NCBI GenBank assembly: GCA_031265825.1
Contig: JAISCD010000019.1
Location: forward strand, 1 to 20,225
DNA length: 20,225 nt
Source of the DNA: Treponema sp.
GTDB lineage: Bacteria > Spirochaetota > Spirochaetia > Treponematales > Breznakiellaceae
Direction: 5' to 3'
Made by a program: the position numbers and the translations under genes. Shown here in pieces: positions 1,338 to 16,116 of the stretch (position 1 is its first letter; every line of letters starts with the position of its first letter). A model generated the notes under the pieces. That model was not told the origin of the DNA. It saw nothing but the letters and a program-made list of their open reading frames with translations, and made no database searches.

Positions 1338-2861
1338 ATGAGTCTTATGAATAAGCTGTCTTCAAAAACCATTCTTGTTTTCAATCTTGTACTGATTGGC
1401 GTCATCTTTGGGTTCTCTTTGGCGTTTTTATCTTTTGCCCGCGTGTCGCCGTTTAACGGCTCGAACAAAGCGGTTCAGGCGGAGGAAACCTCTGCGGCTT
1501 CAACACTTTCTTCAGCGGACGCGCTTAGTATTGCCGAAGGTTTGCAGACCGCCTTACGCGATGTATCTGACAAGGTTCTGCCCTCGGTTGTGGAAATCAA
1601 TACGGTTTCTATCAGGCAACAGCAAACCCCTAACTTCAACGGAGTCCCTTGGGATTTCTTTTTTGGTCCACGTAACAGGGAACCAGAGGATGGGGGCGAA
1701 AGACGCGAGTTTCGTTCCAGCGGATTGGGGTCGGGCATCATCGTCAGGCTTGAAAAGAACGTCTATTACGTGCTTACCAACAACCATGTGATAGAAGACG
1801 CCAACGAAATAAGCGTCAAGGTGAACAGCGACAAAGAGTATAGTGCGAAACTGATCGGCAGAGACGAGCGCAAGGACCTGGCGATGGTCTCTTTTGAGAC
1901 GAGGGATTCGTATCCGGTTGCGAAGCTGGGCGATTCTGACGCGGTAAGAGTCGGAGACTGGGCTATCGCCATCGGCAACCCGTTGGGTTATATGTCCTCT
2001 GTAACGCTCGGCATCGTAAGCGCGGTGGGGCGCACAGGCGGTCCGGCGAATAATATCAACGACTTCATTCAAACCGACGCTTCCATCAATCATGGCAATT
2101 CAGGCGGCGCTTTAGTGAACATTAGAGGCGAAGTCATCGGTATCAATACGTGGATAGCAAGCAACGGCGTCAGTTCAGGCTCTGTAGGGCTTGGCTTTGC
2201 CATCCCCATAAACAACGCGAAGCGCTCTATCGACGAATTCATTGACAAAGGTGAAATCAGCTACGGGTGGTTGGGCGTATCCCTAACCGACGTGGATAAA
2301 GATTTTGCGAAAGCGTTAGGCTTTGAAGGCGAGCATGGGGCGTTTGCCGGCAATGTGTTCACCGATTCGCCCGCGGAGAAAGGCGGGATCAGACCGGGAG
2401 ACTTCATTACCAAAGTAGACGGCAAAGAAGCGCGGGGTATGAATCAACTCACACGCATGGTAGGAGACCTGAAACCGGGAGACAAGAGCGTATTTACAGC
2501 TATTCGGGATGGTAAAGAACAGAATTTCACTGTTACCATAGAGGCGCGCGACAACAACGTCGCCGCAGACAACAAGAAGCTTTGGCCTGGTCTTTACGTC
2601 ATTCCGCTTACTGATGAAGTCAAGGACAGTCTCAAACTCGACAAGAACGCTCAAGGAATCTACACTGTCCAAGTCATAGATCAGTCGCCTGCGGCAATCA
2701 TTGGAATACAACGCGGCGACCGCATCTTGGGTATCAATGGCAAACAAGTAAAGGATATTGCCGAGTTCTACAAACTCTTACGTGAAACCTCAGAAAGAGA
2801 GCTGCAATTCTCCTTCATCCGCGGCGATTCTGAACTTGAGTCGCTGAAGTTTAGAAAGTAA
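1338..2861 (+). CDS. htrA: HtrA/DegP/DegQ-family periplasmic serine endoprotease (trypsin-like domain plus two PDZ domains)
   Basis: 507-aa ORF with an AGGAG RBS (ttttaggagagaaaaATG). An N-terminal hydrophobic anchor is present. The catalytic triad context is NNHVIED(H), D, and GNSGGALVN(S). Two C-terminal PDZ-like segments follow (GWLGVSL..., GIYTVQVIDQSPAA...). Confidence 0.9.
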   Translation: MSLMNKLSSKTILVFNLVLIGVIFGFSLAFLSFARVSPFNGSNKAVQAEETSAASTLSSADALSIAEGLQTALRDVSDKVLPSVVEINTVSIRQQQTPNFNGVPWDFFFGPRNREPEDGGERREFRSSGLGSGIIVRLEKNVYYVLTNNHVIEDANEISVKVNSDKEYSAKLIGRDERKDLAMVSFETRDSYPVAKLGDSDAVRVGDWAIAIGNPLGYMSSVTLGIVSAVGRTGGPANNINDFIQTDASINHGNSGGALVNIRGEVIGINTWIASNGVSSGSVGLGFAIPINNAKRSIDEFIDKGEISYGWLGVSLTDVDKDFAKALGFEGEHGAFAGNVFTDSPAEKGGIRPGDFITKVDGKEARGMNQLTRMVGDLKPGDKSVFTAIRDGKEQNFTVTIEARDNNVAADNKKLWPGLYVIPLTDEVKDSLKLDKNAQGIYTVQVIDQSPAAIIGIQRGDRILGINGKQVKDIAEFYKLLRETSERELQFSFIRGDSELESLKFRK

Positions 2862-2960
2862 ACGCATGATAAAGAATAGCGGTTGTTATTTAGAAAGCTC
2901 AGCGAAGTTTCAAACAACGACAGCTATTCTTTATCCATCAAAAAGGAATACAAAATATCA

Positions 2961-3182
2961 ATGGAATTAAAATCTTTTCTTGGACAAATACTAACCTCGT
3001 GGCAGGTGATAATGGTAACGGTTGTGGTCGTTCTCTACATACTGTTAGTATCCTATGTGACGCAGTTTCGGCATAGAGCCAAAGTAGAAAAGGCGCCTAA
3101 GAAGAAAACACCTAAACCAAAGAAAGAGGAAGAGACTGAAGAAACGGAAGAAACCGAAGAAAAGAAGAAAGCCTCCAAATAA
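2961..3182 (+). CDS. small membrane protein with one TM helix and a Lys/Glu-rich tail (EETEETEETEEKKK). Hypothetical. An alternative start lies at 2883
   Basis: ORF directly downstream of htrA. It has a strongly hydrophobic stretch (VIMVTVVVVLYILLVSYV) followed by a K/E-rich low-complexity tail. No homolog recognised. Confidence 0.35.
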   Translation: MELKSFLGQILTSWQVIMVTVVVVLYILLVSYVTQFRHRAKVEKAPKKKTPKPKKEEETEETEETEEKKKASK

Positions 3183-3198
3183 ACCTCTTGGGCGATAG

Positions 3199-3228
3199 GC
3201 GGCGTCATAGACAACGCCGATTTCTTTG
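3199..3228 (+). terminator. candidate intrinsic terminator
   Basis: Hairpin cggcgt-catagaca-acgccg followed by aTTTCTTT, 17 bp after the small ORF stop. Confidence 0.4.
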
Positions 3229-3257
3229 CGCTTGACGGCTAATGCTAATATAGGAAA

Positions 3258-4217
3258 ATGACGAAAGAAGAACTAGAATATAAAGTCGGTGCGCTCTTAT
3301 ACACGCCAGCGCTGTATCCCAATATTGCCGAAAAAATACACGACGGACAATTCCGTAGGGTCAATTCTCTTGCGTTTTGTCTTGAAGATTCCATTCAAGA
3401 TGCCTCCCTTGACAAGGCGGAACGCGCCCTGCTTCATTCGTTACGGACGCTCAATCTGACTATATGCAAACAAGATGCGCCGCTCTTGTTCGTCCGTATC
3501 CGTAATCCGCTCCACCTGAAACACATTCACGCCGCGCTTGGGCAAGACGCGCGGTTATTGACAGGCTACATCCTCCCAAAATTCGATGAAACCAATGCGG
3601 ACGATTATGTTAGGCTTGTCCATGAAATGAACGCAGGTGTAGATGAACCTTTCTTCGTCATGCCGATCCTAGAAACGACCCGCGTTGCTTATGTGGAGAC
3701 GCGCCATGACGCGCTCAAGGCGATCAAGCGAAGCATTGACGGCATAAGGGAGTATGTTTTGAACATTCGATGTGGAGGCAATGATTTCTGTAATATCTTC
3801 GGGGTTCGGCGTTCATTTAACCAGACTATTTACGAAATTGGCGTGGTCCGAGACATTCTGGTAGACATTCTCAACTACTTTTCCCGTTCTTATGTGGTAT
3901 CCGCGCCGGTGTGTGAATTTTTTGAAGACGGTGTATCTGACGCATGGAAGGAAATTCTACGAAAAGAGACGCGATTAGACAGGCTTAATGGGTTTGTTGG
4001 CAAGACAGCTATTCACCCTTCGCAAGTTCCGGTGATTGCGGAGTGTATGAAGGTTCCCAAAGCCGACTATGCGGACGCTCTCCAAATCAATCATTGGAAC
4101 GATCCTGAATTGGGTGTATCGCGGGGCGAAAATGGGCGCATGAACGAGGCAAAAGTTCACGGCGCATGGGCGCGGAAGGTTCTCCGCTTCGCCGAAATTT
4201 ACGGTATAGAAGAATGA
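3258..4217 (+). CDS. HpcH/HpaI aldolase / citrate lyase beta (CitE)-like family protein, probably a citryl- or malyl-CoA lyase-like enzyme
   Basis: Family landmarks appear in order: LLYTPAL (cf. LFVPG), AFCLEDSI (cf. DLEDAV), GYILPKFDE (cf. G-LPKVE), VMPILETTRV (cf. IETARGV), and GFVGKTAIHPSQVPVI (cf. GFDGKWAIHPSQI). Confidence 0.7.
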   Translation: MTKEELEYKVGALLYTPALYPNIAEKIHDGQFRRVNSLAFCLEDSIQDASLDKAERALLHSLRTLNLTICKQDAPLLFVRIRNPLHLKHIHAALGQDARLLTGYILPKFDETNADDYVRLVHEMNAGVDEPFFVMPILETTRVAYVETRHDALKAIKRSIDGIREYVLNIRCGGNDFCNIFGVRRSFNQTIYEIGVVRDILVDILNYFSRSYVVSAPVCEFFEDGVSDAWKEILRKETRLDRLNGFVGKTAIHPSQVPVIAECMKVPKADYADALQINHWNDPELGVSRGENGRMNEAKVHGAWARKVLRFAEIYGIEE

Positions 4218-4311
4218 TCGTGTTGACATTTCTCCTCAATTTTGTTAAAAGATTTTGAAAAAGAACTTGATAAAAAATACGGCAAGGATATTATATTTAT
4301 GGAGGAATAAC

Positions 4312-4782
4312 ATGGAAAATTTAGCATATAAAATTATAACCCCAAGGTTTATAGGACGTACAAAATATTCCAAATTGGTTCTCATAATGTCTTTTGTCTT
4401 GGTAGGGGCTTTTATTGGAATAATATATTCCTCCAAAAAGCCATCGGTTGATATTGATAATGGGGTTTTAACCATAAAATCATTGTTTTATGGAAAAAGT
4501 ATACCCATTGGGGAAATAAATGTAAACGGCGTCCAGCAGTTGAACTTAAATATTGATAAAGACTATAACATAAAAATCAGAACAAATGGAATAGGATTGC
4601 CGAATTATCATGTTGGTTGGATGCGATTAAATAATGGAAATAAGGCATTGGCATATTTAATGGATAAAACCAATGTAGTTTTAATTCCAACAAAAGACTA
4701 TGATGTTTTAATCAGTACAAAAGATTTTGACAGAATAAAAGAAGCGTTAAATGAAGGGATAAAAGTTGGTAAAGAGAAGTAA
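4312..4782 (+). CDS. membrane-anchored bacterial PH-domain (bPH_2/YdbT-like) protein. Hypothetical. Strongly AT-rich
   Basis: A GGAGG RBS precedes the ATG at 4312 (the track ORF starts earlier, at 4255). The N-terminus has a TM helix (LVLIMSFVLVGAFIGIIY) and is followed by a beta-rich ~120-aa domain reminiscent of bacterial PH domains. Its GC content is far below that of flanking housekeeping genes. Confidence 0.5.
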   Translation: MENLAYKIITPRFIGRTKYSKLVLIMSFVLVGAFIGIIYSSKKPSVDIDNGVLTIKSLFYGKSIPIGEINVNGVQQLNLNIDKDYNIKIRTNGIGLPNYHVGWMRLNNGNKALAYLMDKTNVVLIPTKDYDVLISTKDFDRIKEALNEGIKVGKEK

Positions 4783-4907
4783 ATGTCCGTCCTCATTTAT
4801 CTCCCCATAAATAATTAAATTGTTAAACAATGTCTCTGGGCGTTGTCAATCAACTGTATCAAATAAATATTCCAGAACTATTTTATTTTTTCCCCGCATT
4901 GCTATAC

Positions 4908-4960
4908 GCCAGACCCCGTTTTCTCAAGCGGGTTGAATGATTGCCGTCTCCGCATTTCCC
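4908..4960 (-). repeat. ~53-bp ghost copy of an internal segment of the endonuclease gene (homolog of 8503-8556), fused in-frame to array A
   Basis: tacgccagacccc(g)ttttctcaagcggRttgaatgattgccgtcYccgcatttcccc is present at both loci. It encodes GEMRGRQSFNPLEK in the endonuclease and GEMRRRQSFNPLEK at the C-terminus of the array ORF. A 1-nt indel then shifts the frame to a stop. Confidence 0.8.
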
Positions 4961-5376
4961 CGTCCACTCTCAAAGACCCGACATCCACTCTCAGAGACCC
5001 GACGTCCTCTCTCAAAGACCCGACTTCCACTCTCAGAGACCCGACTTCCACTCTTAAAGAGCCGACTTCCACTCTTAAAGAGCCGATTTCCTCTCTTTTA
5101 GACCCGACGTCCACTCTCAGAGAGCCGACACCCACTCTCAAAGACCCGACACCCACTCTCAAAGAGCCGATGTCCACTCTCAAAGACCCGACGTCCACTC
5201 TCAGAGAGCCGATTTCCACTCTCAGAGACCCGGCGTCCACTCTCAGAGACCCGACTTCCTCTCTCAGAGACCCGATGTCCACTCTCAAAGACCCGACATC
5301 CACTCTTTGAGAGCCGACATCCACTCTCAAAGAGCCGACGTCCTCTCTCAAAGAGCCGAAATCCACTCTCAGAGAG
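4961..5376. repeat. tandem array A: about 20 imperfect units of 21 bp (consensus tccactctcaRagaSccgacNt)
   Basis: Direct inspection shows strict 21-bp periodicity, with variation confined to a few positions. Each unit carries the palindrome (c)tctcAgaga(g), and many units also contain gacgtc. Both strands are open: + gives DPTSTLR heptads and - gives VGSLRVD heptads. Confidence 0.95.
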
Positions 5377-5384
5377 TAAAATAT

Positions 5385-5430
5385 CGCCGTGCTTTAACGT
5401 TATGCTGTTTTCTGTAGTCTTAATTTTGGG
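5385..5430 (-). repeat. ~46-bp ghost copy of the M1 3'-end / M2 5'-region junction (homolog of 6197-6242)
   Basis: atcgccgtgctttaRcgttatgYtgttttcYgtagtYttaatttt is present at both loci. In the real copy it encodes the last 11 aa of methyltransferase 1, and in another frame KIKTTENNITLKHGD, the N-terminal motif of methyltransferase 2. Confidence 0.8.
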
Positions 5431-5492
5431 CGCCACTTGACGCCTCTTTCTATTGCCGTCAAGGACGGCGGGCGAGACTGAGACTGTTACTT

Positions 5493-6152
5493 CTATAATA
5501 ATGACAATTCCATTGTCGTTTTATTGATCCTATCTTTTGCAATATTAAAATAATTATCATCAATTTCTATCCCAATAAATTTCCTTGCCAATTTCTTTGC
5601 CACTACTCCTGTTGTTCCACTACCCATAAATGGGTCTAAAATTGTATCTCCAATTCTACTACCCAATAATATAATACGCTTTAATAATGTCTCTGGCTTT
5701 TCCGTTGGGTGTTCCGTCAAATGTCTTTCCGCTGGTATTTCCCAAAGATTTTTCATCTGCTTTCCACCGTTTAATTCTTTTGCGGTATCATAATCAAAGA
5801 AATAGTTTTTTGTTTTGCTTGCAAGCCATATTAATTCAGTTGAAGGCGCAAGGCGATTCTTTGACAATAAAGGAGTAGCGTTCCTTTTAAACCATATAAT
5901 ATCGTTAATAATCCAATAATCAAGTTCTTTTAATAATACGCCAACGGAAGGGTGATTATGCAAGGTCCCAGACACCCATAATGTACCAGTATCCGATAAA
6001 ATCCTTTTACATTCTGTAAGCCACGCCCGATTAAAAGCATGAATATCATCAATAACATCCCATTTCCCTTTATCGCAGGCTACAGGTTTACCATTTTTAA
6101 CCGTAAGAAAACCTGCCCCTGACAAATTATAGGGGGGATCAGCAAAAATCAT
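5493..6152 (-). CDS. beta-class DNA amino-methyltransferase (N6-adenine or N4-cytosine), second methyltransferase of the R-M cassette. The N-terminus is anomalous
   Basis: Motif IV DPPYN lies at the N-terminus and motif I DPFMGSGTTG near the C-terminus, the beta permutation of the N6_N4_Mtase family. The gene is AT-rich. The conserved N-terminal segment is encoded upstream of the only ATG, which suggests an indel in the A-run at 6189-6193. Confidence 0.8.
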   Translation of the reverse strand: MIFADPPYNLSGAGFLTVKNGKPVACDKGKWDVIDDIHAFNRAWLTECKRILSDTGTLWVSGTLHNHPSVGVLLKELDYWIINDIIWFKRNATPLLSKNRLAPSTELIWLASKTKNYFFDYDTAKELNGGKQMKNLWEIPAERHLTEHPTEKPETLLKRIILLGSRIGDTILDPFMGSGTTGVVAKKLARKFIGIEIDDNYFNIAKDRINKTTMELSLL

Positions 6153-6211
6153 ATCTATACTTTTATCGGGAATATCTTTAATAAGAGTAAAAACATCGCC
6201 GTGCTTTAGCG

Positions 6212-7072
6212 TTATGTTGTTTTCCGTAGTTTTAATTTTAGACGCTCCTTTGCAACAAGAATATACTGTTCGTTTTTTTCAATGCCAATCCAATGGCGGT
6301 TTAATTCTTTCGCAACTTTCCCTGTTGTCCCTGTTCCGAAAAATGGATCCAGCACTATATCATTTTCATTCGACGATGCTTTAATAATTAACTCTAATAG
6401 TTTTTCCGGTTTTTGCGTCGGATGAACCGCACGCCCATTTGTTCCCTTAATGCGTTCTTTTCCCTGAACAATAGGTATTTCGATAAAATCAAAAAAATCA
6501 CGCATTTGCTTGCTATCACCATCTTTTGTCTTATGTGGGTTAAATTCTTTAACCTCGTTGTAATTAAAAATCCAATTTTTGCCTTTAACAAACCAGCACA
6601 CAAATTCCGTAGAATGGGTAAAAGTTCGTTTTGTAATATTTGGCATAGCATTAGTTTTATACCATGTTAAAATATTATTGAGTTTGAAGCCTACCTTTTT
6701 CCCTTCAATAAGAATTTCGCCGATATTATGTTGAGTACATGAAATATACAAACTGCCATTTGGCAAAAGAATCTTATGGCAAGCCTTCAACCAAGTTGCC
6801 GTGAACGTTACATAATCGAGATAATTAAAAGTATCCCAATCCTCATTCATTTTGTAATATGCACCACCAGTTTTGTTGTTTTTCAAATCAAGCGGCTTAC
6901 CGGATAAATTATAAGGCGGGTCGGCAAACACAAGATTTATTGAGTTTTCTTGTATTTGGGTTTCGAGTATTTGTACACAATCGCCTTGTATAATTTGATT
7001 AAGTGGTAATTTATGCGACAAGGGATATACCCCATTTGTTAATGATAGTCGGAATATTTGCCAACCAATCAT
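6212..7072 (-). CDS. beta-class DNA amino-methyltransferase (N6-adenine or N4-cytosine), first methyltransferase of the R-M cassette
   Basis: N-terminus IIQGDCVQILE...SINLVFADPPYNL (motif IV) and C-terminal VLDPFFGTGTTGKVA (motif I). The ATG at 7072 overlaps the endonuclease 3' end by 62 bp. An in-frame TTG near 7022 would reduce that overlap to 8 bp. Confidence 0.85.
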   Translation of the reverse strand: MIGWQIFRLSLTNGVYPLSHKLPLNQIIQGDCVQILETQIQENSINLVFADPPYNLSGKPLDLKNNKTGGAYYKMNEDWDTFNYLDYVTFTATWLKACHKILLPNGSLYISCTQHNIGEILIEGKKVGFKLNNILTWYKTNAMPNITKRTFTHSTEFVCWFVKGKNWIFNYNEVKEFNPHKTKDGDSKQMRDFFDFIEIPIVQGKERIKGTNGRAVHPTQKPEKLLELIIKASSNENDIVLDPFFGTGTTGKVAKELNRHWIGIEKNEQYILVAKERLKLKLRKTT

Positions 7073-8822
7073 CGGATTTTGTGAGTTCCTTCGATGATAA
7101 AACTATCGATTCAAACAATTCTTGTATCTTTTTATGCGATAGAAAATAGTCTTTGTTTTGTTTCTTTGCATCGAATAAATACTGTAATATTTCAATAAAC
7201 TGCTGAATAGTGATAGGAACGATGTTTTGTTTTTGTCCCTCATATTCATATTTTACGGAAAACCAAAAGGTGTTTCTGGTATCACGGTGGATTTTAGGAG
7301 CGACAAAAAGGCAATATGATTGTTTTTCATTATGCATCGCTTCAAAGTCTCTAAAATGCCGCATCACAGGCTGTCCTTCGTTAAACCATTGCGAACGGCT
7401 GGTTAATAATGTTACTTCACAGATTGAATTAAATGCTTGATAAAAACATTCAATGTCTGGTTTATTTGCCGGCGCGGTAAAGGTTGGCACATTGTCATCG
7501 CCTACAGGATAATTAGGATGAATTTCCAGCGCATCATTTAGGGCGTGTAAGCCGCTGGTAATAATTCGTTCCAATTCAACGGGCTTTTTACCAGCGAGTT
7601 TATGAATATTCTTTAAGTTAGTTATACAACTCTTTATATTTTCCAGTAATTGTAATTCCGCATGAACGCTTGCATCTGATAATTTGCGTCGATAGGAACG
7701 CAAATTTTCAATAGTCTTTTTTAGTGTAGTAGCATTATCATCTTTAGGTTTTATCTGCGGCATTTTGGGAAGGCTAATGCCTTTTGCTTTCATTATGTAC
7801 TCGGTTGTTTCAATGTCGGCGACTAATAATTTAATAACTTCCTGTAACTTCGTTTTATTTTCCCATGGCAATTCTGGCTGTGTAGCATCTCCTAAATACG
7901 TTGAGTATTCTGCTTTTAACGCGAATGTTTTTGCCGATGCGTTATCTGTTTCGATAATTGAATCAATCTCTATTTTTCGTCGCGGCTCTAGATCAATATA
8001 ATAATCATTTCCACGCAGATAAAAAAACCGAGTAAGGTGGAAGTTGCGTATTACATTATCCGCATAGTCTTTTGCGTTCCCCCATGACTCGTATTCGGAG
8101 AAATACTTATAAAAATATTCTTCCGCAAACTTTTCTATGCTTTCAGCAATTTTTACCTTTTGATAATCATTGCGGAATTTTAATATCTTTTCTGCCGTCT
8201 CTTCAATGTTTACATAGCTTGATAATGTTGTAAAGAACAAAGCGAATTCTATTTTTGATACGCCTTTTTCTTTTATACCTTGTCCAGCGCAAAGCGTATT
8301 TACTTTTTTAATTAAATGAAATGTAGCAATAAGTGGTTTAATATTGTAACCATCTTCTGCGGAATATTTATTCAGGTCAGGGTTGGGATATTGCCATTTA
8401 AGGAAACTACGAAAAAAAATATCGCCTAAATCGTAATTTTCGGATAAAAAAGCCTGTCCAAATGTGGTAACTTTTATTTTCTTTTCCGTATCAATATACG
8501 CCAGACCCATTTTCTCAAGCGGATTGAATGATTGCCGTCCCCGCATTTCCCCACCGCCTTTATAGTTTTTAGCGTTCAGTATTTCTTCCGCTTGTTCGTA
8601 GGTAAATGTATCGGAATGAAGCCATTCAAAGTGTTTTTTAGTTAATGTTTTTTCAAATTCGGGAATATTTATTCCGTATATTTTTCTCTGAAGCAGTAAT
8701 ATTTGGTAGCATTTCTGAGTTTCATCATTCCAAACTTCCCCCTCCAATTCCTTAAAAACCTTCAAGAAGGTACGTATCCGCTCGGGGTTTCTAACAGTTG
8801 TTGATATAGACCAAAGTCTCAT
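7011..8822 (-). CDS. putative type IIS restriction endonuclease, AlwI / N.BstNBI / PleI / MlyI-like (603 aa)
   Basis: A large ORF sits immediately upstream of, and co-oriented with, two strand-specific beta-class methyltransferases. That is the typical layout of a type IIS R-M system. Its size matches AlwI-family enzymes (~560-610 aa). Segments LKWQYP, PDIECFYQAFNSICEVT, QPVMRHF and YCLFVAPKI resemble AlwI-family (RE_AlwI) landmarks as I recall them. This was not verified by a search. A GAGGA RBS is present. Confidence 0.6.
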   Translation of the reverse strand: MRLWSISTTVRNPERIRTFLKVFKELEGEVWNDETQKCYQILLLQRKIYGINIPEFEKTLTKKHFEWLHSDTFTYEQAEEILNAKNYKGGGEMRGRQSFNPLEKMGLAYIDTEKKIKVTTFGQAFLSENYDLGDIFFRSFLKWQYPNPDLNKYSAEDGYNIKPLIATFHLIKKVNTLCAGQGIKEKGVSKIEFALFFTTLSSYVNIEETAEKILKFRNDYQKVKIAESIEKFAEEYFYKYFSEYESWGNAKDYADNVIRNFHLTRFFYLRGNDYYIDLEPRRKIEIDSIIETDNASAKTFALKAEYSTYLGDATQPELPWENKTKLQEVIKLLVADIETTEYIMKAKGISLPKMPQIKPKDDNATTLKKTIENLRSYRRKLSDASVHAELQLLENIKSCITNLKNIHKLAGKKPVELERIITSGLHALNDALEIHPNYPVGDDNVPTFTAPANKPDIECFYQAFNSICEVTLLTSRSQWFNEGQPVMRHFRDFEAMHNEKQSYCLFVAPKIHRDTRNTFWFSVKYEYEGQKQNIVPITIQQFIEILQYLFDAKKQNKDYFLSHKKIQELFESIVLSSKELTKSDDWLANIPTIINKWGISLVA

Positions 8823-8931
8823 ATATTCCTCATTATTATCATAAAGTTTTTATTTGTCCTTTATAATTTTCCCTTCAATTCATCAATTTCACTAATTAGT
8901 AAAGCAAAAACATTCTTATTTAATGAGTATC

Positions 8932-9245
8932 TTAATTCTCAGAGAGCCAACATCCACTCTCAGAGAGCCGATGTCCACTCTCAGAGACCCGTCATCCACT
9001 CTCAGAGACCCGATTTCCACTCTCAAAGAGCCGACATCCATTCTCAAAGAGCCGACGTCCACTCTCAGAGAGCCGATTTCCACTCTCAGAGAGCCGACTT
9101 CCACTCTCAAAGACCCGACGTCCTCTCTCAGAGACCCGACGTCCTCTCTTTTAGTCCCGACGTCCACTCTCAAAGAACCGACATCCACTCTCAGAGAGCC
9201 GACATCCACTCTCGGAGACCCGACGTCCACTCTCAAAGAGCCGAC
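8932..9245. repeat. tandem array B: about 15 units of the same 21-bp repeat (consensus tccactctcagagagccgacRt), in direct orientation to array A
   Basis: Direct inspection. The core palindrome ctctcAgagag (5-1-5) is cleaner here than in array A. On the minus strand the array lies 94 bp upstream of the endonuclease start codon. Confidence 0.95.
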
Positions 9246-9286
9246 GTCGGGTCTTTGAAAGTGAGTGGATACTCTCTGAGTATCCG
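9226..9286. repeat. terminal inverted repeat unit and hairpin pair closing array B
   Basis: The last unit is followed by its own near-exact reverse complement (ctcaaagagccgac|gtcgggtctttgaaag). A perfect 8-3-8 palindrome ggatactc-tct-gagtatcc follows, and it embeds the repeat core in inverted form. Confidence 0.7.
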
Positions 9287-9311: not shown

Positions 9312-9794
9312 TTAGGTTTCCGTCTCAACCTCGCTGGGTGTCCGCTTGCCGCCGGGGAAGCGGGTTCTCAGTTCCTCGTAGACCGCCTTTGCGCCGGGTA
9401 TATCCTGTTCCGCCGCCATTTTGACAGACTTGTAAAACACGAGGGCGGCTTGATAGGCTTCGCTTCCAGCTATCATTTCCGTGTCTTCTATGTTCTCATC
9501 AAGTTGCCGAATACTGTTGGCAAGCGTCCAAAGCCCGTGGGCGTCGTCAAAATCCACGCCGAAAGCGATTATATCAAGGTAGGTTGGGACAAAATTCGGA
9601 TTCTTCTTGGCAAAATCGTAGGATTTCTCCACAAAACTTATGGTTTTCTCACCCATTTTAGGCAATTCGTGCCGTTCAGTCGGGGTCAGAGCCATCACAT
9701 AGGGGGCTAAAAGCGTCTTGACCTCGTCAATCTTGGTCTGCGCCTGCGTCAAAACATCCTGCGGTATGGCTTGGACGTGTTTATTATCCTTCAT
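9312..9794 (-). CDS. hypothetical protein (160 aa)
   Basis: Clean ORF with a GAGGAG RBS (ttgactttGAGGAGattATG). Its GC content matches the housekeeping genes. No recognisable family. Confidence 0.6.
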   Translation of the reverse strand: MKDNKHVQAIPQDVLTQAQTKIDEVKTLLAPYVMALTPTERHELPKMGEKTISFVEKSYDFAKKNPNFVPTYLDIIAFGVDFDDAHGLWTLANSIRQLDENIEDTEMIAGSEAYQAALVFYKSVKMAAEQDIPGAKAVYEELRTRFPGGKRTPSEVETET

Positions 9795-10067
9795 AATCTC
9801 TCCTCAAAGTCAATATATAAAATAGTTTATAGAAAAATACTCTTTTTTACAAGAGGGATAATGTGGCATATCCTCACACCTTTCACACCCTTCGCGCGAG
9901 AAGCGTGTTTTAAAGGCTTCCTGTTCCGCTTGGCGTGTGGTTGGTTTGGGAGTAGCGGCGCCTTTCGAGTGTTGCGGCATTTTTTGCCAAATTTTTGTGA
10001 AAAAACTAGACGAATCTGAAATAATAGGTTAATATGTTAAAGTATATTAGTTTAGAAGGAGTTTTTT

Positions 10068-10589: not shown

Positions 10590-11068
10590 GGGTGCCGCGG
10601 GTGTCAGAGACGTGAGGTGGCGGAGTAGGCGATGTCTGCGAGTGTCAGACGTGCGAGTTTTTTGGGGGTGGCGGAAGACCCGCGCAAGCGGGTCTGGAGA
10701 CAGGGGGGCGCACCGCAAGGGCGTCTGTGTGCCGTCCTCCGTTTAAGGAAAGACGCGCCCCCCTCATACAGAGAACAAATAGTAAAGAGCAGAGAGCAAT
10801 TAGTAAAGAGCAAAGGAAGAAGAGCCGTCCGAGGTGCAAACTGGGCGGCGCTTCGAGTGTCAGACATAAACAACGAATAGGCTCCGCTTGCTTGCAAGCG
10901 CACCCTTCGGGTGTTTTAAAGCGTCCTGCCTCGCCGTGCGTGTGGATTACCGAACATCGCGGAGGTTCCGCTTGCAAGGCAAGCGTAACCGTCCTGTCGG
11001 GGTCAGCGGCACACCCTTTCAAACAATAACCCGTGTGAAGTATTTAAACACCCGTTGGGTGTTTTTTT
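10590..11068 (+). repeat. GC-rich structured repeat element, copy L (inverted partner of 13152-13625)
   Basis: It aligns as a reverse complement with 13152-13625 over ~450 bp. It contains GTGTCAGAGAC and GTGTCAGAC palindromes, several stable hairpins, and an internal AGTAAAGAGC micro-repeat block. It ends in a perfect rho-independent terminator. The last ~20 codons of mazG are read from it on the opposite strand. Confidence 0.85.
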
Positions 11069-11915: not shown

Positions 11916-13151
11916 ATGAATACAGCATTAGAAAACCTGAGAGCCCGAGGATTTTTTCGGCAATGTACAGACGCGGAGCGGTTGTCCGCGCTCATGGACG
12001 AGGGTCCTGTTACGTTTTATGTGGGGTGCGACCCTACGGGATCGAGTCTTCACATCGGACACATGGTACCGTTTTTTGCGTTTCGGCACTTGCGCGCCGC
12101 GGGTCATCGTGGAATAGCCCTGATCGGCGGCGGTACGTCCCGCATCGGGGATCCTTCTGGCAAAACGTCCATGCGTCAAATGCTTGATTACGAGAAATTG
12201 GACGAAAACGCCGCTTCTATTACAAGGCAATTGGATGCTTTCTTGAACTTTGACGGACAAAATGCCTTCACCGCCAACAATAAGGATTGGCTCGCGGAAC
12301 TTAATTACATTGATTTCCTGCGCGATATAGGGAGGCATTTCTCTGTCAATCGTATGCTTTCCTTCGAGGCTTATCGTCTCCGTATGGAAACCGGGCTTTC
12401 GTTTCTTGAATTCAACTATCAGTTATTGCAGAGTTACGATTTCCTGCAATTATTCCGTAAACACGGGTGTCGTCTTCAGATAGGCGGGGATGATCAGTGG
12501 GGCAATATTGTCGCGGGTTCGGACTTGATTCGGCGGATTGACGGCGCGGAGGTGTTTGGTCTCACGTTCCCGCTTATCACCACAGCGGACGGCAAGAAGA
12601 TGGGCAAGACCGAGAAGGGCGCGCTCTTTCTTGACCCGTCTATCACTTCGCCTTATGACTTCTTCCAATATTGGCGGAATGTTCAGGACGCGGATATTAG
12701 GCGTTTCCTGCTCATGTTCACGTTTCTCTCTGTCGAAGAATGTACGGCTCTTACTGCGGAGGGCACGAGTCCCAACAACGCGAAGGAAAGGCTTGCCTGG
12801 GAGGTAACGGCTCTCATACACGGGAGGGATGCGGCGAATCGCGCGCTTGCCGGCGCACGCGCGAGTTTCGGCGGTTCGGGTGGCGATAAGTCCGCGGTAC
12901 CGACCGTCTCTCTTGCTATGGATAAGTTCGACGCGGGTTATAACATCGTCGATTTGTTCACAGATGCGGGGCTTTGTTCCACGAAGAGCGAGGCGCGGCG
13001 TCTTGTCCAGCAGGGCGGCGCATTTGTGAGCTGTGACGACGAGGGGTTCGTAGCCATAACGGATCCGAAAGCCGTGGTGGGTTTTTCAGAAGAATTGGTT
13101 CTTCGTGCAGGCAAGAAGCGCACCCTTCGGCTGCACCCGAAGGCTGTTTAA
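11916..13151 (+). CDS. tyrS: tyrosine--tRNA ligase
   Basis: Class I motifs HIGH (SLHIGHMVPF) and KMSKS (KKMGKTE) are present. A C-terminal S4-like domain ends the protein. It is divergent from mazG with a 64-bp intergenic gap, too short for a T-box leader. Confidence 0.95.
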   Translation: MNTALENLRARGFFRQCTDAERLSALMDEGPVTFYVGCDPTGSSLHIGHMVPFFAFRHLRAAGHRGIALIGGGTSRIGDPSGKTSMRQMLDYEKLDENAASITRQLDAFLNFDGQNAFTANNKDWLAELNYIDFLRDIGRHFSVNRMLSFEAYRLRMETGLSFLEFNYQLLQSYDFLQLFRKHGCRLQIGGDDQWGNIVAGSDLIRRIDGAEVFGLTFPLITTADGKKMGKTEKGALFLDPSITSPYDFFQYWRNVQDADIRRFLLMFTFLSVEECTALTAEGTSPNNAKERLAWEVTALIHGRDAANRALAGARASFGGSGGDKSAVPTVSLAMDKFDAGYNIVDLFTDAGLCSTKSEARRLVQQGGAFVSCDDEGFVAITDPKAVVGFSEELVLRAGKKRTLRLHPKAV

Positions 13152-13625
13152 CGACTTCACACGGGTTGTTGTACGAAAGGCGGACCCGCTGTCCCCGCAC
13201 CCTTCGGGTGTTGGACAACTTCACAATGGTTGTTGTTTGAAAGGTTGACCCGCTGACCCCGTCTTGACGGTTACGCTTGTCTTGCAAGCGGAACCTGCTC
13301 GTTGTTTATGTCTGACACCCGAAGCACACCCGAAGCGCCGCCCGGCTTGCACCTCGGACGGCTCTTCTTCCTTTGCTCATTGCTCATTACTAACTGCTAA
13401 TTGCTCTCTCCCCTCTGCTAACTGCTAACTATTCATTACTCACTAGTATGAGGGGGGCGCATCTTTCCCTAAACGTGATTGGCACACAGACGCCCTTGCG
13501 GTGCGCCCCCCTGTCTCCAGACCGCCCCCGCGTGGCGGGTTTAAAAGGGGCGGTCTTCCGCCACCCCCCAAAACTTGCACCTCTGACACCATCGCCTCCG
13601 CCCGCCTGCCGGTGCCTACCCGCCG
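13152..13625 (-). repeat. GC-rich structured repeat element, copy R (inverted partner of 10590-11068)
   Basis: Reverse-complement alignment with copy L. It starts exactly at the tyrS stop. It contains a tandem internal duplication of a ~47-bp module (13154-13200 and 13215-13262), an expanded TTAGCAG-type micro-repeat block, and a hairpin whose stem sequence differs from L while staying complementary. Confidence 0.85.
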
Positions 13626-13676
13626 TCCGTCTTTCCTCTTTGCTATCTGCTTTATTATTTGCTCTTTTTTATTTGG

Positions 13677-13890
13677 TGTCAGGCATCGCCCCGAAACTCC
13701 GCCCTGTGCCTGCGGTGTCAGACATCGCCTTACTCCACCGCCCGGCGTGGTGTCAGTCATTATACTTTTATGTCTGCGTACCGGGGGTGCGGCGGCGTGC
13801 GTGCGGTGTCAGACATGGGCTATTCAGCGTGGTGTCAGACACTATACCTGCGTATCGGGACATAGGCTTATTACGGCTAGGTGTCAGACA
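13677..13890 (+). repeat. row of six direct GGTGTCAGACAY palindromic motifs spaced at 30-57 bp
   Basis: Motif starts at 13677, 13716, 13750, 13807, 13837 and 13881, all in the same orientation. The core GTGTC-A-GACAC is a 5-1-5 palindrome. Confidence 0.85.
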
Positions 13891-14172
13891 TCTTGTCTTA
13901 ACTCTGCGCCATCTTGTCTTAACTCTGCGCCATCTTGTCTCAACTCTGCACCATCTTGTCTCAACTCCGCGCCATCTTGTCTCAACTCCGCTCCATCTTG
14001 TCTTAACTCTGCTCCATCTTGTCTTAACTCTGCTCCATCTTGTCTCAACTCTGCGGCATCTTGTCTCAACTCTACGCCATCTTGTCTCAACTCTGTCGTA
14101 TCTTGTCTTAACTCTGCGCCATCTTGTCTCAACTCTGCGCCATCTTGTCTCAACTCTATGGCATCTTGTCTC
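13889..14172. repeat. tandem array C: about 13.5 units of a different 21-bp repeat (catcttgtctYaactctgcgc)
   Basis: Direct inspection. The array is bracketed on both sides by GTCAGACAT motifs. The left boundary forms a 5-3-5 palindrome agaca-tct-tgtct. Confidence 0.95.
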
Positions 14173-14189
14173 TGTCAGACATCGGGACT

Positions 14190-14282
14190 ATGTTTGGGGA
14201 GGGGGTAGCGTAAGACCGATCCTTTTAAACCAGCTACGCGGGGGACGAGCTGGAGACAGGGGGCGCACCACAAGGATATGAG
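14190..14282 (+). repeat. third, partial copy of the element core (same orientation as copy L)
   Basis: aagaccgatccttttaaaccagctacgcgggggacgagctggagacagggggcgcaccacaagg matches the L/R core (ggcggaagacc...ctggagacaggggggcgcaccgcaagg). Confidence 0.7.
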
Positions 14283-14332
14283 AAAGTCCGCGTGCGCGCG
14301 GATTTGTCTGTTCTGTATTTACTAAATGTTAC

Positions 14333-14343
14333 GGGGGGGGGGG
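14333..14343 (+). repeat. homopolymeric G tract (11 G)
   Basis: Counted directly in the sequence. It is the longest homopolymer in the window and lies ~620 bp upstream of the SPFH operon. Confidence 0.9.
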
Positions 14344-14964
14344 TAGATCGCTCGTATTCCCACAAACAGCCTTCTATAGCGGCTTGCGGGCTTCCAAAGA
14401 CGAGAAAGTTCTCTATGCGCTTGTCGTTTCTGCATAGTATTTACCCAAAAGACAGAAATTGTCAAACGCATTTGACTATAAATGCTTGCTTTACAGATAA
14501 GTTTACGTTATAATAGCAGTACGAGCCAAAGCTGAGGCTTTAGAGCCTCGCGGCGCCGCTCCGCTGGAATACGGCGTGCCGACTCGCAAGGGTTTGTAAC
14601 TACAGACTTGCATGGACTCCGTAATAACGCGGCTGACTTGTCAAGACCGCGTCTTATTATTGAAATATCATCCATGCTCCATGCGTCAGCGTGCGCAAAA
14701 CAAAAGCGCTAAGTCTTAAGTGAAGATCTTAGTAAGCATGGTTAGGAATAGCCTTATTATTCCGCAACGCCGAAGACGGTAAAGGGTCGGCAACCCTTGC
14801 GCGGCACCGGATACCGCCGCTCTGTTTCTTGTCGATGCGCCCGTTTCGAGAAACGCGACTTTCGCTTTTTACAAACGGACGCGGACGCTCAGAACATACA
14901 GGCTCAAAGAGCCGCCCGTTTGTCTGCCTCGACTTCGGCGTTTTATCAGTTTTAGGAGAGAAAA

Positions 14965-16116
14965 ATGCAAATCTTACAAGAAGAACGCGGTCTGCTTTAC
15001 CGAAGAGACGAATATAAAAGACTGCTTATGCCCGGAAAATATTTTATCCCACCCGGCTGTCGAGTGGAACGCTATTGTATCGACGAACCGTTCAACCCTG
15101 ATAATCATAACATCAACGGACTTTTGGAACAGGATAAAGCCATCGCCGAAAATCTTGACGTCATTGAAGTCCCAGATGGACGCCTCCTCCTCGTCCATGA
15201 GAACGGCAACCTCATCGGCGCGTTTCTTGGCGACAACAGGAAAGTCTGCTATTGGAAGTTTTCTCGTTCAGTTGGTAGCGAGAGAACACGCAAGTTTACC
15301 TTGGTTGACCTTAACGATGCGGAAAGCGCGAAAAACTTGGACCGCGCCGTGTTGACTCATCCACTGGTAACAAGGTTGAATATCGTGTTGAGATGCGACG
15401 TCAAGAGCTGGGAGAAAGGACTCCTCTTCATAGACGATCAATTCATCCACCTTTTGGAAAGCGGCGTTCATTTCTTCTGGGACGTGGATATAAACAGCGA
15501 GGGACAGGGACGCATTGAAATAGTAAAGACCGATCTCAGGCAACAACAGATTGATATTTCAGGGCAGGAAATTATGACCGCGGATAAGACGCCCCTCCGC
15601 GTCAACTTCTTCTGCCGCTACCGCGTCATTGATATAATGAAGTCCATACTCAGTATAAAAGACTTGAGAGAACAGTTTTATACAGCTCTGCAAATCGTTC
15701 TCCGCGAATATCTTGGTTCTCTTACTTTCGACGCGCTCATGGAAAAACGGCGGAGTATAGCGACTGAAATGTCCGAAACGCTTCGAGAGGTCTGCGCGGG
15801 TTTCGGGCTTGAATTCATAGGCGCGGGTATAAAGGACATCATCCTACCCGGCGAAATCCGCGAAATCATGAACCAAGTTCTCATCGCGGAGAAGAAGGCT
15901 CAGGCAAACGTCGTTATGCGGCGGGAAGAAACCGCCTCGACGCGGAGTCTCCTCAACACGGCAAAACTTATGGAAGAAAATACGGTACTTGCCCGTTTGA
16001 AAGAGATGGAGTATATTGAACGTATTGCTTTGAATATTAAGGAGATTAGCCTTTCCGGTAAATTTCAAGTATTCGACGAATTACGGACTCTGTTCACGCC
16101 GAAGAGCGGCGGTTGA
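14965..16116 (+). CDS. SPFH/band-7 (stomatin/prohibitin/HflKC-like) domain protein with an uncharacterised N-terminal domain
   Basis: The C-terminal half follows the SPFH pattern (GLLFIDDQ...GVHFFWD...IDISGQEIMTADKTPLRVNFFCRYRVID...ILPGEIREIM). The RBS context ttttaggagagaaaaATG is identical to the one in front of htrA. Confidence 0.75.
   Translation: MQILQEERGLLYRRDEYKRLLMPGKYFIPPGCRVERYCIDEPFNPDNHNINGLLEQDKAIAENLDVIEVPDGRLLLVHENGNLIGAFLGDNRKVCYWKFSRSVGSERTRKFTLVDLNDAESAKNLDRAVLTHPLVTRLNIVLRCDVKSWEKGLLFIDDQFIHLLESGVHFFWDVDINSEGQGRIEIVKTDLRQQQIDISGQEIMTADKTPLRVNFFCRYRVIDIMKSILSIKDLREQFYTALQIVLREYLGSLTFDALMEKRRSIATEMSETLREVCAGFGLEFIGAGIKDIILPGEIREIMNQVLIAEKKAQANVVMRREETASTRSLLNTAKLMEENTVLARLKEMEYIERIALNIKEISLSGKFQVFDELRTLFTPKSGG

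Follow-up and report, generated by a model that had tools for sequence, protein, structure and literature searches.

A 21-nucleotide tandem array next to a type IIS restriction-modification cassette in a termite-gut Treponema belongs to a conserved orphan gene

We analysed a 20,225-nt stretch of DNA (contig JAISCD010000019.1, hereafter the window), which is the entire contig of a metagenome-assembled genome (MAG) of a termite-gut Treponema. The window carries two arrays of 21-bp tandem repeats, A and B, one on each side of a restriction-modification (R-M) cassette, and array B directly follows a gene for a 160-aa protein. We found that array B belongs to the 160-aa gene and not to the cassette. 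The locus as a whole is explained best by a host gene-array module with an RNA-level element and an inserted R-M cassette, an explanation in which we have moderate confidence. Array B would be the local copy of a two-part module consisting of an orphan gene of ~155-175 codons and an array on the same strand, the period of the array being constant at 21 nt (frequently in 42-nt double units) and its sequence drifting freely between lineages. Both the 160-aa family and the repeat element with its 21-nt period are previously undescribed.

An initial annotation made from the letters alone had reported two 21-bp tandem arrays of about 20 and 15 units, and the program Tandem Repeats Finder (TRF) gave practically the same picture, with 19.8 copies in array A and 14.9 in array B, a period of 21, 84% matches and zero indels in each. 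The arrays are in register and share one common unit in equal orientation, which in array B, on the gene strand, reads A(C/T)GTCGG(C/G)TCT(C/T)TGAGAGTGG. A core, TCTnnnAGA, is invariant in every unit of both arrays, whereas the longer 5-1-5 palindrome proposed as the centre of each unit, CTCTCAGAGAG, is complete in just 3 of the 20 units of A and 4 of the 15 units of B. The variation between units is indeed concentrated, as had been suggested, the positions that mainly vary being about six of the 21. It is also correct that GACGTC is frequent, since it occurs four times in array A and six times in array B, while about four occurrences are expected across the whole window. Between the stop codon of the 160-aa gene and the direct units there is a leader, made of an inverted unit that forms a palindrome about GACGTC (9228-9263) and of a hairpin, GGATACTC-TCT-GAGTATCC (9267-9285); the same hairpin is present in L004 (L-numbers denote the individual loci or contigs compared). 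The GC content of the arrays is 0.55, that of the 160-aa host gene 0.51 and that of the cassette 0.354, the flanks having 45-51%.

The unit proved to be specific to the arrays. Outside arrays A and B the window does not contain it, even at four mismatches, and an exact-pattern scan of one genome per species, covering 185,579 species, gave only six single matches; two of these lie at the homologous locus of termite-gut spirochaetes. A viral-contig scan gave no match, exact-protein look-ups for four proteins of the window gave none either, and a literature search for 21-bp repeats in Treponema found none.

The array is linked to the gene and not to what lies beyond it. All nine loci with close homologues of the 160-aa protein have an array in 21-nt register at or near the stop codon of the gene, whatever follows. 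L003, L004, L008, L009, L011, L012, L014 and L015 have homologous arrays in this position, which are followed by an AlwI-type R gene in L003, L008 and L011, by a relic of the cassette in L009 (described below), by unrelated type II methyltransferases in L004 and L014, by a type IIG enzyme in L015 and by a convergent transporter gene in L012. A first metagenome scan, the patterns of which were too narrow, gave no match; the second returned 80 further loci with 36-77% identity to the window protein, and when TRF was run on the 600 nt past each stop codon, periods of 21, 42, 63 or 84 were found in most of them. In addition, we performed a lag test, with lags of 5-60 and at least 55% identity over 126 nt. 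The best self-similarity lag was 21 or 42 in 63 of 83 loci, which cover 36-100% protein identity and were not de-duplicated, whereas none of the 92 control windows, taken after other open reading frames (ORFs) of the same loci, gave this result. The array units are unrelated in sequence between lineages. Among related contigs the copy number ranges from 4 to 20, and conservation between species holds unit by unit for orthologues, as in L003/L008 and in the L062 group. No match at the gathering score of Rfam 15 was obtained in the window or in 20 family loci (143 kb).

The 160-aa protein has 482 close homologues, all from termite-gut spirochaetes, and its family profile matched 3046 clusters at E<=1e-3 (the clusters being representatives at 50% identity), nearly all of them 150-175 aa long; one named member comes from an Azoarcus MAG. 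Searches of Pfam, NCBIfam, PADLOC, PHROGs and PDB sequences with the 160-aa protein gave no match, and Pfam did not match any of the family clusters. Its AlphaFold2 model is a helical bundle (pLDDT 68) for which structural comparison gave no significant fold neighbour and in which no helix-turn-helix (HTH), ribbon-helix-helix (RHH), winged-helix or nucleic-acid-binding fold was recognised. The gene is the sole member of the family in the window, and the family was not found by tblastn in plasmid and phage collections. In the L018 locus (1764-5692) the family gene has a lambda-type terminase large subunit, with GpA ATPase and nuclease domains, on one side and a C5 DNA methylase on the other, the sole phage-like context among 34 upstream neighbours.

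The two sides of the module differ in their neighbours. Of the nine loci compared first, eight have R-M genes or a relic right after the array, and the Pfam assignments among 34 further downstream neighbours include three Eco57I-type enzymes, two C5 methylases, N6 methylases, Uma2, AbiH, an OLD-like ATPase with a TOPRIM domain, Cas6, Fic and an IS1595 transposase. PADLOC models match 202 families downstream, on the array side, as against three upstream, where the neighbours of the family gene are ordinary housekeeping genes. The 3' side of the array would thus appear to be a preferred site for defence genes across the family; either cassettes are recruited by a recombinogenic array, or the defence-island repertoire includes the module itself.

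The cassette of the window (5378-8936, 3.56 kb, or ~3.3 kb between the arrays by another reckoning) has a low GC content, lies on the minus strand and contains only an endonuclease gene, R, and two methyltransferase genes, M1 and M2 (Table 1). Neither an ORF with an HTH nor a C-protein gene was found in it, and the 160-aa protein has no HTH, so the locus does not qualify as a C-protein-controlled R-M system. The conserved N-terminus of M2, ITLKHGDVFTLIKDIPDKSID (ITLKHGDVF...), lies upstream of the first ATG, GTG or TTG (6153-6215) and overlaps the end of M1, which suggests a non-canonical start or an N-terminal truncation; homologues of M2 have been called as 219 or ~240 aa. As the methyltransferases resemble CcrM/HinfI-type enzymes, a specificity of the GAGTC type is plausible from their sequences. 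We looked for GAGTC and GGATC in arrays A and B and found no site of either, and a methylation-sensitive switch working through recognition sites in the arrays was rejected for this reason.

The same R-M1-M2 cassette, with M2 85% identical, was found at two other loci, in Breznakiellaceae bacterium SP9 (L016) and in an Elusimicrobiota MAG (L017), and neither a gene of the 160-aa family nor an array is present there. In L016, the cassette is flanked by a direct duplication of 126 bp that is 97% identical (6206-6331 and 9678-9803). It is host sequence in which a hydrogenase-like gene ends and a SpoIIE gene starts, and represents a textbook long target duplication. In L017 (4333-4580, 7966-8031), a ~48-bp tandem repeat in four copies precedes the cassette, which is flanked by inverted repeats of 45 nt (91%) and 25 nt (96%), a transposon-like arrangement unlike that of the other two loci.

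These loci bear directly on the function that had been proposed for array B, namely a double-stranded-DNA operator or roadblock to which a dimeric protein binds cooperatively on one face of the helix and which controls R in place of a C-protein. Several features would suit such a role: every unit contains the TCTnnnAGA dyad, 21 bp are two helical turns and the dyads are centred 10.5 bp apart, a C-protein gene is lacking, and array B lies upstream of R and is co-oriented with it, although the gap to the ATG at position 8822 is 114 nt and not 94 bp as first given. Moreover, in relatives the start codon of R (or M) is located just ~20-45 nt past the last unit, so that transcription of the R-M genes must start in the array or cross it. 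The key prediction of the operator nevertheless fails, because the identical cassette type occurs in L016 and L017 without an array and the array occurs elsewhere without the cassette, trailing the 160-aa family gene regardless of the presence or type of R-M genes. In the window itself, a promoter-like site, AGGACA-17-AATAAT (8860->8832), is found in the spacer downstream of array B and ahead of R, and array A, being downstream of the operon, cannot serve as an operator there. The arrays also resemble the host in GC content and not the cassette (0.55 versus 0.35), they have no recognition-type sites, and the strand polarity of their composition and motifs, described below, is unexpected for symmetric dimer sites. 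An operator specific to the restriction gene seems to us improbable to a high degree; array B may have an incidental effect on read-through into R. It is worth stressing that repeats beside an R gene are not automatically its regulator.

The arrays might also be translated, either as a heptad-repeat protein (coiled-coil or surface, a surface protein being the alternative named in the initial annotation) or as a read-through C-terminal extension of the 160-aa protein. Both strands of arrays A and B are indeed open, giving the heptads DPTSTLR (+) and DVGSLRV (-), in which a/d-like positions are occupied by hydrophobic residues. A single TAA separates the upstream ORF from the DVGSLRV-type frame in the termite clade, the two being in phase, and that frame is stop-free in ~20 of 31 close relatives. 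The frameshifted call P0077 (212 aa), a homologue, runs from the C-terminal region into its own array (...RAELGSKRPDFDFLREEADSRRPDFGSQRENVGSLREELPS), and calls such as this can give an array the appearance of a coding heptad repeat. No signature of codon positions could be seen, however. When eight termite-clade arrays were read in frame, the mean information at codon positions 1, 2 and 3 was 1.00, 1.00 and 1.08 bits; the most conserved bases were the third bases of TCT and AGA, which are invariant, and the least conserved were the second-position columns 13 and 19. Nor was any frame preferred: of the 57 distinct arrays obtained from TRF, 26, 15 and 28 were fully open in the three sense frames and 26, 19 and 19 in the antisense frames, and several were closed in all six. 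In-frame stops occur within the arrays of L003/L008 (TGA) and of L009 and L012 (TAA every 42 nt), strong terminators separate gene and array in distant homologues, and no Pfam match above the cut-off was obtained. Coding heptads and read-through were rejected on the codon-position information, the in-frame stops and the frame survey, and we regard translation as very improbable. The same holds for a functionless minisatellite, a slippage-prone hairpin repeat duplicated by chance recombination. It is true that the units drift, that their copy number varies severalfold between related contigs and that the genome has other 7- and 21-bp repeats, but neither the conservation of period and position that distinguished the family loci from their controls, nor the one-by-one conservation of orthologous units, nor the conserved polarity and self-complementarity would be expected of such a sequence, and it is hardly credible as an explanation. 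What stands of the initial annotation is that the arrays are constrained, non-coding and dyad-symmetric nucleic-acid elements with a strict 21-nt phase.

We then considered whether these elements act as RNA or as DNA. In the termite clade the units follow the consensus A-W-N-T-C-G-R-C-T-C-T-Y-N-R-A-G-A-G-N-S-G, whose dyads are centred every 10.5 nt. Hollandina has GTTnnnAAC in place of the TCTnnnAGA core, so that both arms have changed. The phase is kept even where units are merely 55-65% alike, with zero indels in 10-15 units. Single-strand folding was better than that of column-permuted controls by at least 2 standard deviations in 80% of 46 arrays (median z -4.4), and the sense strand folded better than the antisense strand in 36 of the 46 (mean 13.6 kcal/mol). 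The G+T content of the sense strand is 0.585 in the arrays and 0.456 in the gene body. Similarly, the motif TTTTAG recurs in the sense orientation in 13 arrays and in the antisense orientation in one, and for GGATGT the numbers are seven and zero. This polarity, together with the asymmetry of the G-U type, points to a single-stranded role, most simply at the level of RNA. The array is probably read in the direction of the gene as a single-stranded nucleic acid, in the form of either a structured RNA trailer or a separate transcript. A partner that measures the units probably determines their length, and no neighbour other than the adjacent protein is constant; it is solely this exclusive linkage that suggests the 160-aa protein as the partner. 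A CsrA sponge, with GGA or GGAUGU in each unit, was tried and set aside; it fits the units of the termite clade, L062 and L090, and by inspection the consensus units of L019, L024, L025 and L041 have no GGA.

A number of observations weigh against an RNA role. Within the termite clade no covariation was detected beyond the invariant TCT/AGA core, and RNAalifold applied to the L062 subfamily gave no covariation bonus (+0.72; 6 of 64 pairs compensated), which is weak support. The idea of the protein as a partner is not favoured by its charge, as the core is acidic (median charge -5) and only the tail is basic. The unit of 21 bp corresponds to exactly two turns of B-DNA and fits a role at the DNA level. 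In 17 loci, which comprise essentially all the distant homologues, a strong terminator-like hairpin lies between gene and array, so that the array would need read-through or a promoter of its own. These hairpins with their T-run have a dG of -15 to -27 kcal/mol and are located 33-96 nt past the stop codon in homologues of <=~62% identity (terminator loci: L041, L047, L050, L053, L061-L069, L075, L077, L080, L082, L085, L093, L094 and L097); an example from the L062 group is AGCGCCATTCC-TTTTCGGG-GGAGTGGCGTTTTTT. The termite clade is without this hairpin, and the array begins at the stop codon there. Taking both sides together, we see about even chances that the array acts as RNA rather than DNA.

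A role as DNA could take the form of a phased binding array, similar to a centromere, an iteron or a nucleoprotein filament, for the adjacent protein or a host factor; the array may also be intrinsically structured, fragile DNA that attracts insertions. The strict phase with zero indels, the two dyads per unit, the linkage of gene and array over the whole range of protein identity, the terminators between them in distant homologues and the accumulation of defence genes and relics at the array edges would all be accommodated by it. The conserved strand polarity in folding, motifs and G+T content is difficult to reconcile with such a role, as are the acidic core of the protein, which has no recognisable HTH, RHH or winged-helix fold, the lack of a partition ATPase or replication gene nearby and the negative searches of plasmid and phage collections. 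A module working at the DNA level therefore appears unlikely to us.

It is highly probable that the array is the host module and the cassette is the insertion. A horizontally mobile, low-GC AlwI-type IIS R-M1-M2 cassette would have landed at the 3' side of the array, and array A would be a second copy of the host array beyond the cassette, which now has a direct repeat at each end (312 and 415 bp). Such repeats may have arisen by insertion with long target duplication, by array-mediated unequal recombination, or by both. Relics of the cassette, X' and Y', were found at the two edges of array A, from which it follows that extra copies of the cassette were once present. X' is 88% identical to the R gene of L008, and its junction with array A was also seen in an independent assembly (Logan contig L001, SRR14710922), which reproduces this left junction of array A and breaks inside the array. 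Y' is joined to array A via the microhomology ACTCT. The unit of array and cassette may thus have existed in multiple copies that later decayed through microhomology-mediated deletions ending at the array, and since X' and Y' are 86-88% identical to their intact counterparts, these events were not recent. Arrays A and B share unit variants, including a rare TTTTAG unit (A7/B11). Colinearity of the two arrays, as after a recent duplication, was looked for and rejected, as no clear diagonal was obtained and only the variant types are in common. A second, distal array was not present in any other family locus examined, so the split array is a local event. In L009/L010 (8653-8842), the relic after the array joins R codons 1-38 in a single step to the final 27 codons of M2 and is directly followed by the 3' end of the tyrosyl-tRNA synthetase (TyrRS) gene; the cassette was therefore lost there by internal deletion and not by recombination between arrays. 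In the window, the direct repeats could still excise or amplify the cassette by homologous recombination.

Some findings do not sit easily with this account. All other family loci, which come from other species, have single arrays (L012 being an array with no R-M gene), and no site of the same species with a single array and no cassette was among them. In L003, L008 and L011, the closest loci with an AlwI-type gene, the distal ends run off the contigs inside the cassette, and the relic of L009 has no distal array. A target duplication at the array element was seen just once, no other array being split. Furthermore, the order Y' - array A - X' needs several deletions, three or four in several scenarios, and no unique history can be derived from it.

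Table 1. Positions of the arrays, the orphan gene, the R-M cassette and the cassette relics in the window
Feature	Position	Strand	Description	Basis
X', relic of AlwI-family R gene	4881..4960	(-)	codons ~90-116 (GEMRRRQSFNPLEKTG), 1-nt frameshift, abuts array A	86% to 8472-8551, E=6e-22
Array A	4961..5377	(-)	19.8 units of 21 bp; array B directly repeated beyond the cassette	TRF extent 4961-5375
Y', relic of M1 and M2	5378..5438	(-)	3' end of M1 and first ~10 codons of M2	5378-5433 versus 6190-6245, 87.5%, E=3e-16
M2	5493..6152	(-)	second N6/N4 DNA methyltransferase	PF01555, 1.7e-53
M1	6212..7072	(-)	N6/N4 DNA methyltransferase, CcrM/HinfI-like	PF01555, 2.7e-60; NF050803, 2e-67, below cut-off
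R	7011..8822	(-)	AlwI-family type IIS restriction endonuclease, 603 aa	PF09491, E=1.8e-82
Spacer from array B to R start	8823..8936	(-)	114 nt, AT-rich, 21% GC	sequence
Array B	8937..9248	(-)	14.9 units of 21 bp; native site, directly 3' of the 160-aa gene	TRF extent 8937-9248
Array leader	9228..9285	(-)	inverted unit, palindrome about GACGTC, then hairpin	inverted repeats and sequence
Conserved orphan gene (LBK25_01295)	9312..9794	(-)	160 aa	large unannotated all-helical family

We also noticed other repeats in the window, the Treponema genome being rich in repeats based on 7 nt. A third 21-bp array is located at 13889-14172 and has 13.5 units of CATCTTGTCTCAACTCTGCGC with 90% matches. Its unit is unrelated to that of arrays A and B, although its + strand, read as HLVSTLR, has STLR in common with theirs, and no gene of the 160-aa family is adjacent to it. 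It lies in a 1.8-kb stretch with no convincing gene (13151-14965), between the TyrRS gene and an SPFH gene, and is bracketed by copies of GGTGTCAGACA(T/C) at ~13720, 13750, 13808, 13832, 13882 and 14173. In addition, an intergenic repeat of ~130 bp, GGTGCCAGACACC...GCCTAGCCCCCGTG...CCCGTCTTTCCTTTGC, followed by a run of the heptamer TGCTAAC and by CTCTCTGAAAAAAGGCGTT, is present in three tandem copies at the end of the contig (19790-20225) and as fragments at 13340-13440, 13600-13680 and 10600-11030.

The architecture of the window can be compared with several known systems. Nobusato and colleagues reportedly described R-M gene insertion accompanied by long target duplication in 2000. Insertion of this kind is a published class of R-M systems, the first cases of which were type IIS, and the flanking repeats permit amplification (Furuta, Abe and Kobayashi 2010, PMC2853133). 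The flanking-repeat architecture of the window shows three of the four defining features of the class. The insert is small (<20 kb), it carries R and M genes and no mobility genes, and its GC content is below that of the host, and the flanking direct repeats (415 and 312 bp, in the same orientation) are far longer than 30 bp. The sister cassette in L016 has a clean duplication. Unlike in that class, the duplicated target is here a tandem array with shuffled units that are ~84-86% alike, and relics of extra cassette copies are found at the array edges. If the gene and array do form a module, the window is a rare snapshot of a type IIS R-M cassette between two copies of such an array with relics of additional copies, and it bears on how R-M systems without mobility genes insert, amplify and get lost.

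Other repeat elements resemble the module in part. Elements of the repetitive extragenic palindrome and bacterial interspersed mosaic element type (REP/BIME) are dispersed in hundreds of copies per genome and have no tie to one gene family or to a fixed period. Like the arrays, they are imperfect palindromes after stop codons, foldable in mRNA and recombinogenic, whereas the array unit is confined to one locus. Integron attC sites, CRISPR and REP with its RAYT transposase were rejected, since there are no spacers, no link to an integrase or Y1 transposase and no dispersed copies. Centromere and iteron arrays (ParR-parC, omega-heptads, Rep-iterons) consist of short head-to-tail units bound by small dimeric proteins, and share with the module the helical phase, the dyad elements and the adjacent gene for a small protein. 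The module differs from them in having no gene for a partition NTPase or Rep, in its chromosomal context, in a protein with no recognisable DNA-binding fold and in the strand polarity of its arrays. The gene-array module fits none of the known definitions tested, which were a C-protein system, a cassette-linked operator, REP/BIME and an Rfam family.

By analogy, the module may work like a protein-RNA pair, although it cannot be classed as one, and for such pairs the type III toxin-antitoxin systems (ToxIN, CptIN, TenpIN) offer a comparison. Their repeats are 31-62 nt long and present in 1.9-5.6 copies (Blower et al. 2012, PMC3401426). The order in these systems is promoter, repeats, terminator and toxin gene, a reversed order being an oddity of one Lactobacillus toxIN locus (PMC3401426). 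As in type III systems, a protein of ~150-170 aa is tightly linked to short tandem repeats on the same strand (63 of 83 loci here), the repeat length is kept within the family while the sequence drifts together with the protein, a terminator stands between the parts in many members, the loci are chromosomal and among defence genes, and the 42-nt double unit, in 3-6 copies, is within the published range. The differences are that the order in the module is reversed (gene, terminator in the 17 distant loci, repeats), that its repeats have a basic period of 21 nt and reach 20 copies, and that its protein is all-helical and acidic, with no ToxN/Kid-like fold and no match to any model; of the criteria for type III systems, the module shares only the adjacency of a gene for a ~160-aa protein and a tandem repeat array. 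We propose tentatively, as a possibility on the less probable side, that the orphan gene and the 21/42-nt array are a widespread module of protein and RNA within the defence-island repertoire. Such a module may be a pair similar to a reversed type III toxin-antitoxin or an abortive-infection system, or an RNA scaffold measured by the protein; each unit would be an RNA element, processed or bound, co-evolving with the protein, and the recombinogenic array would double as a landing pad for R-M and other defence cassettes. Should the gene-array module be real, a family of thousands of clusters and a repeat defined by its 21-nt period and not by its sequence have escaped Pfam, NCBIfam, PADLOC, PHROGs and Rfam. 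The module would then mark, in several phyla, a place where defence genes gather, among them R-M, abortive-infection (Abi) and OLD-like genes, and would provide a new handle on finding defence islands and possibly a new mechanism of their acquisition.

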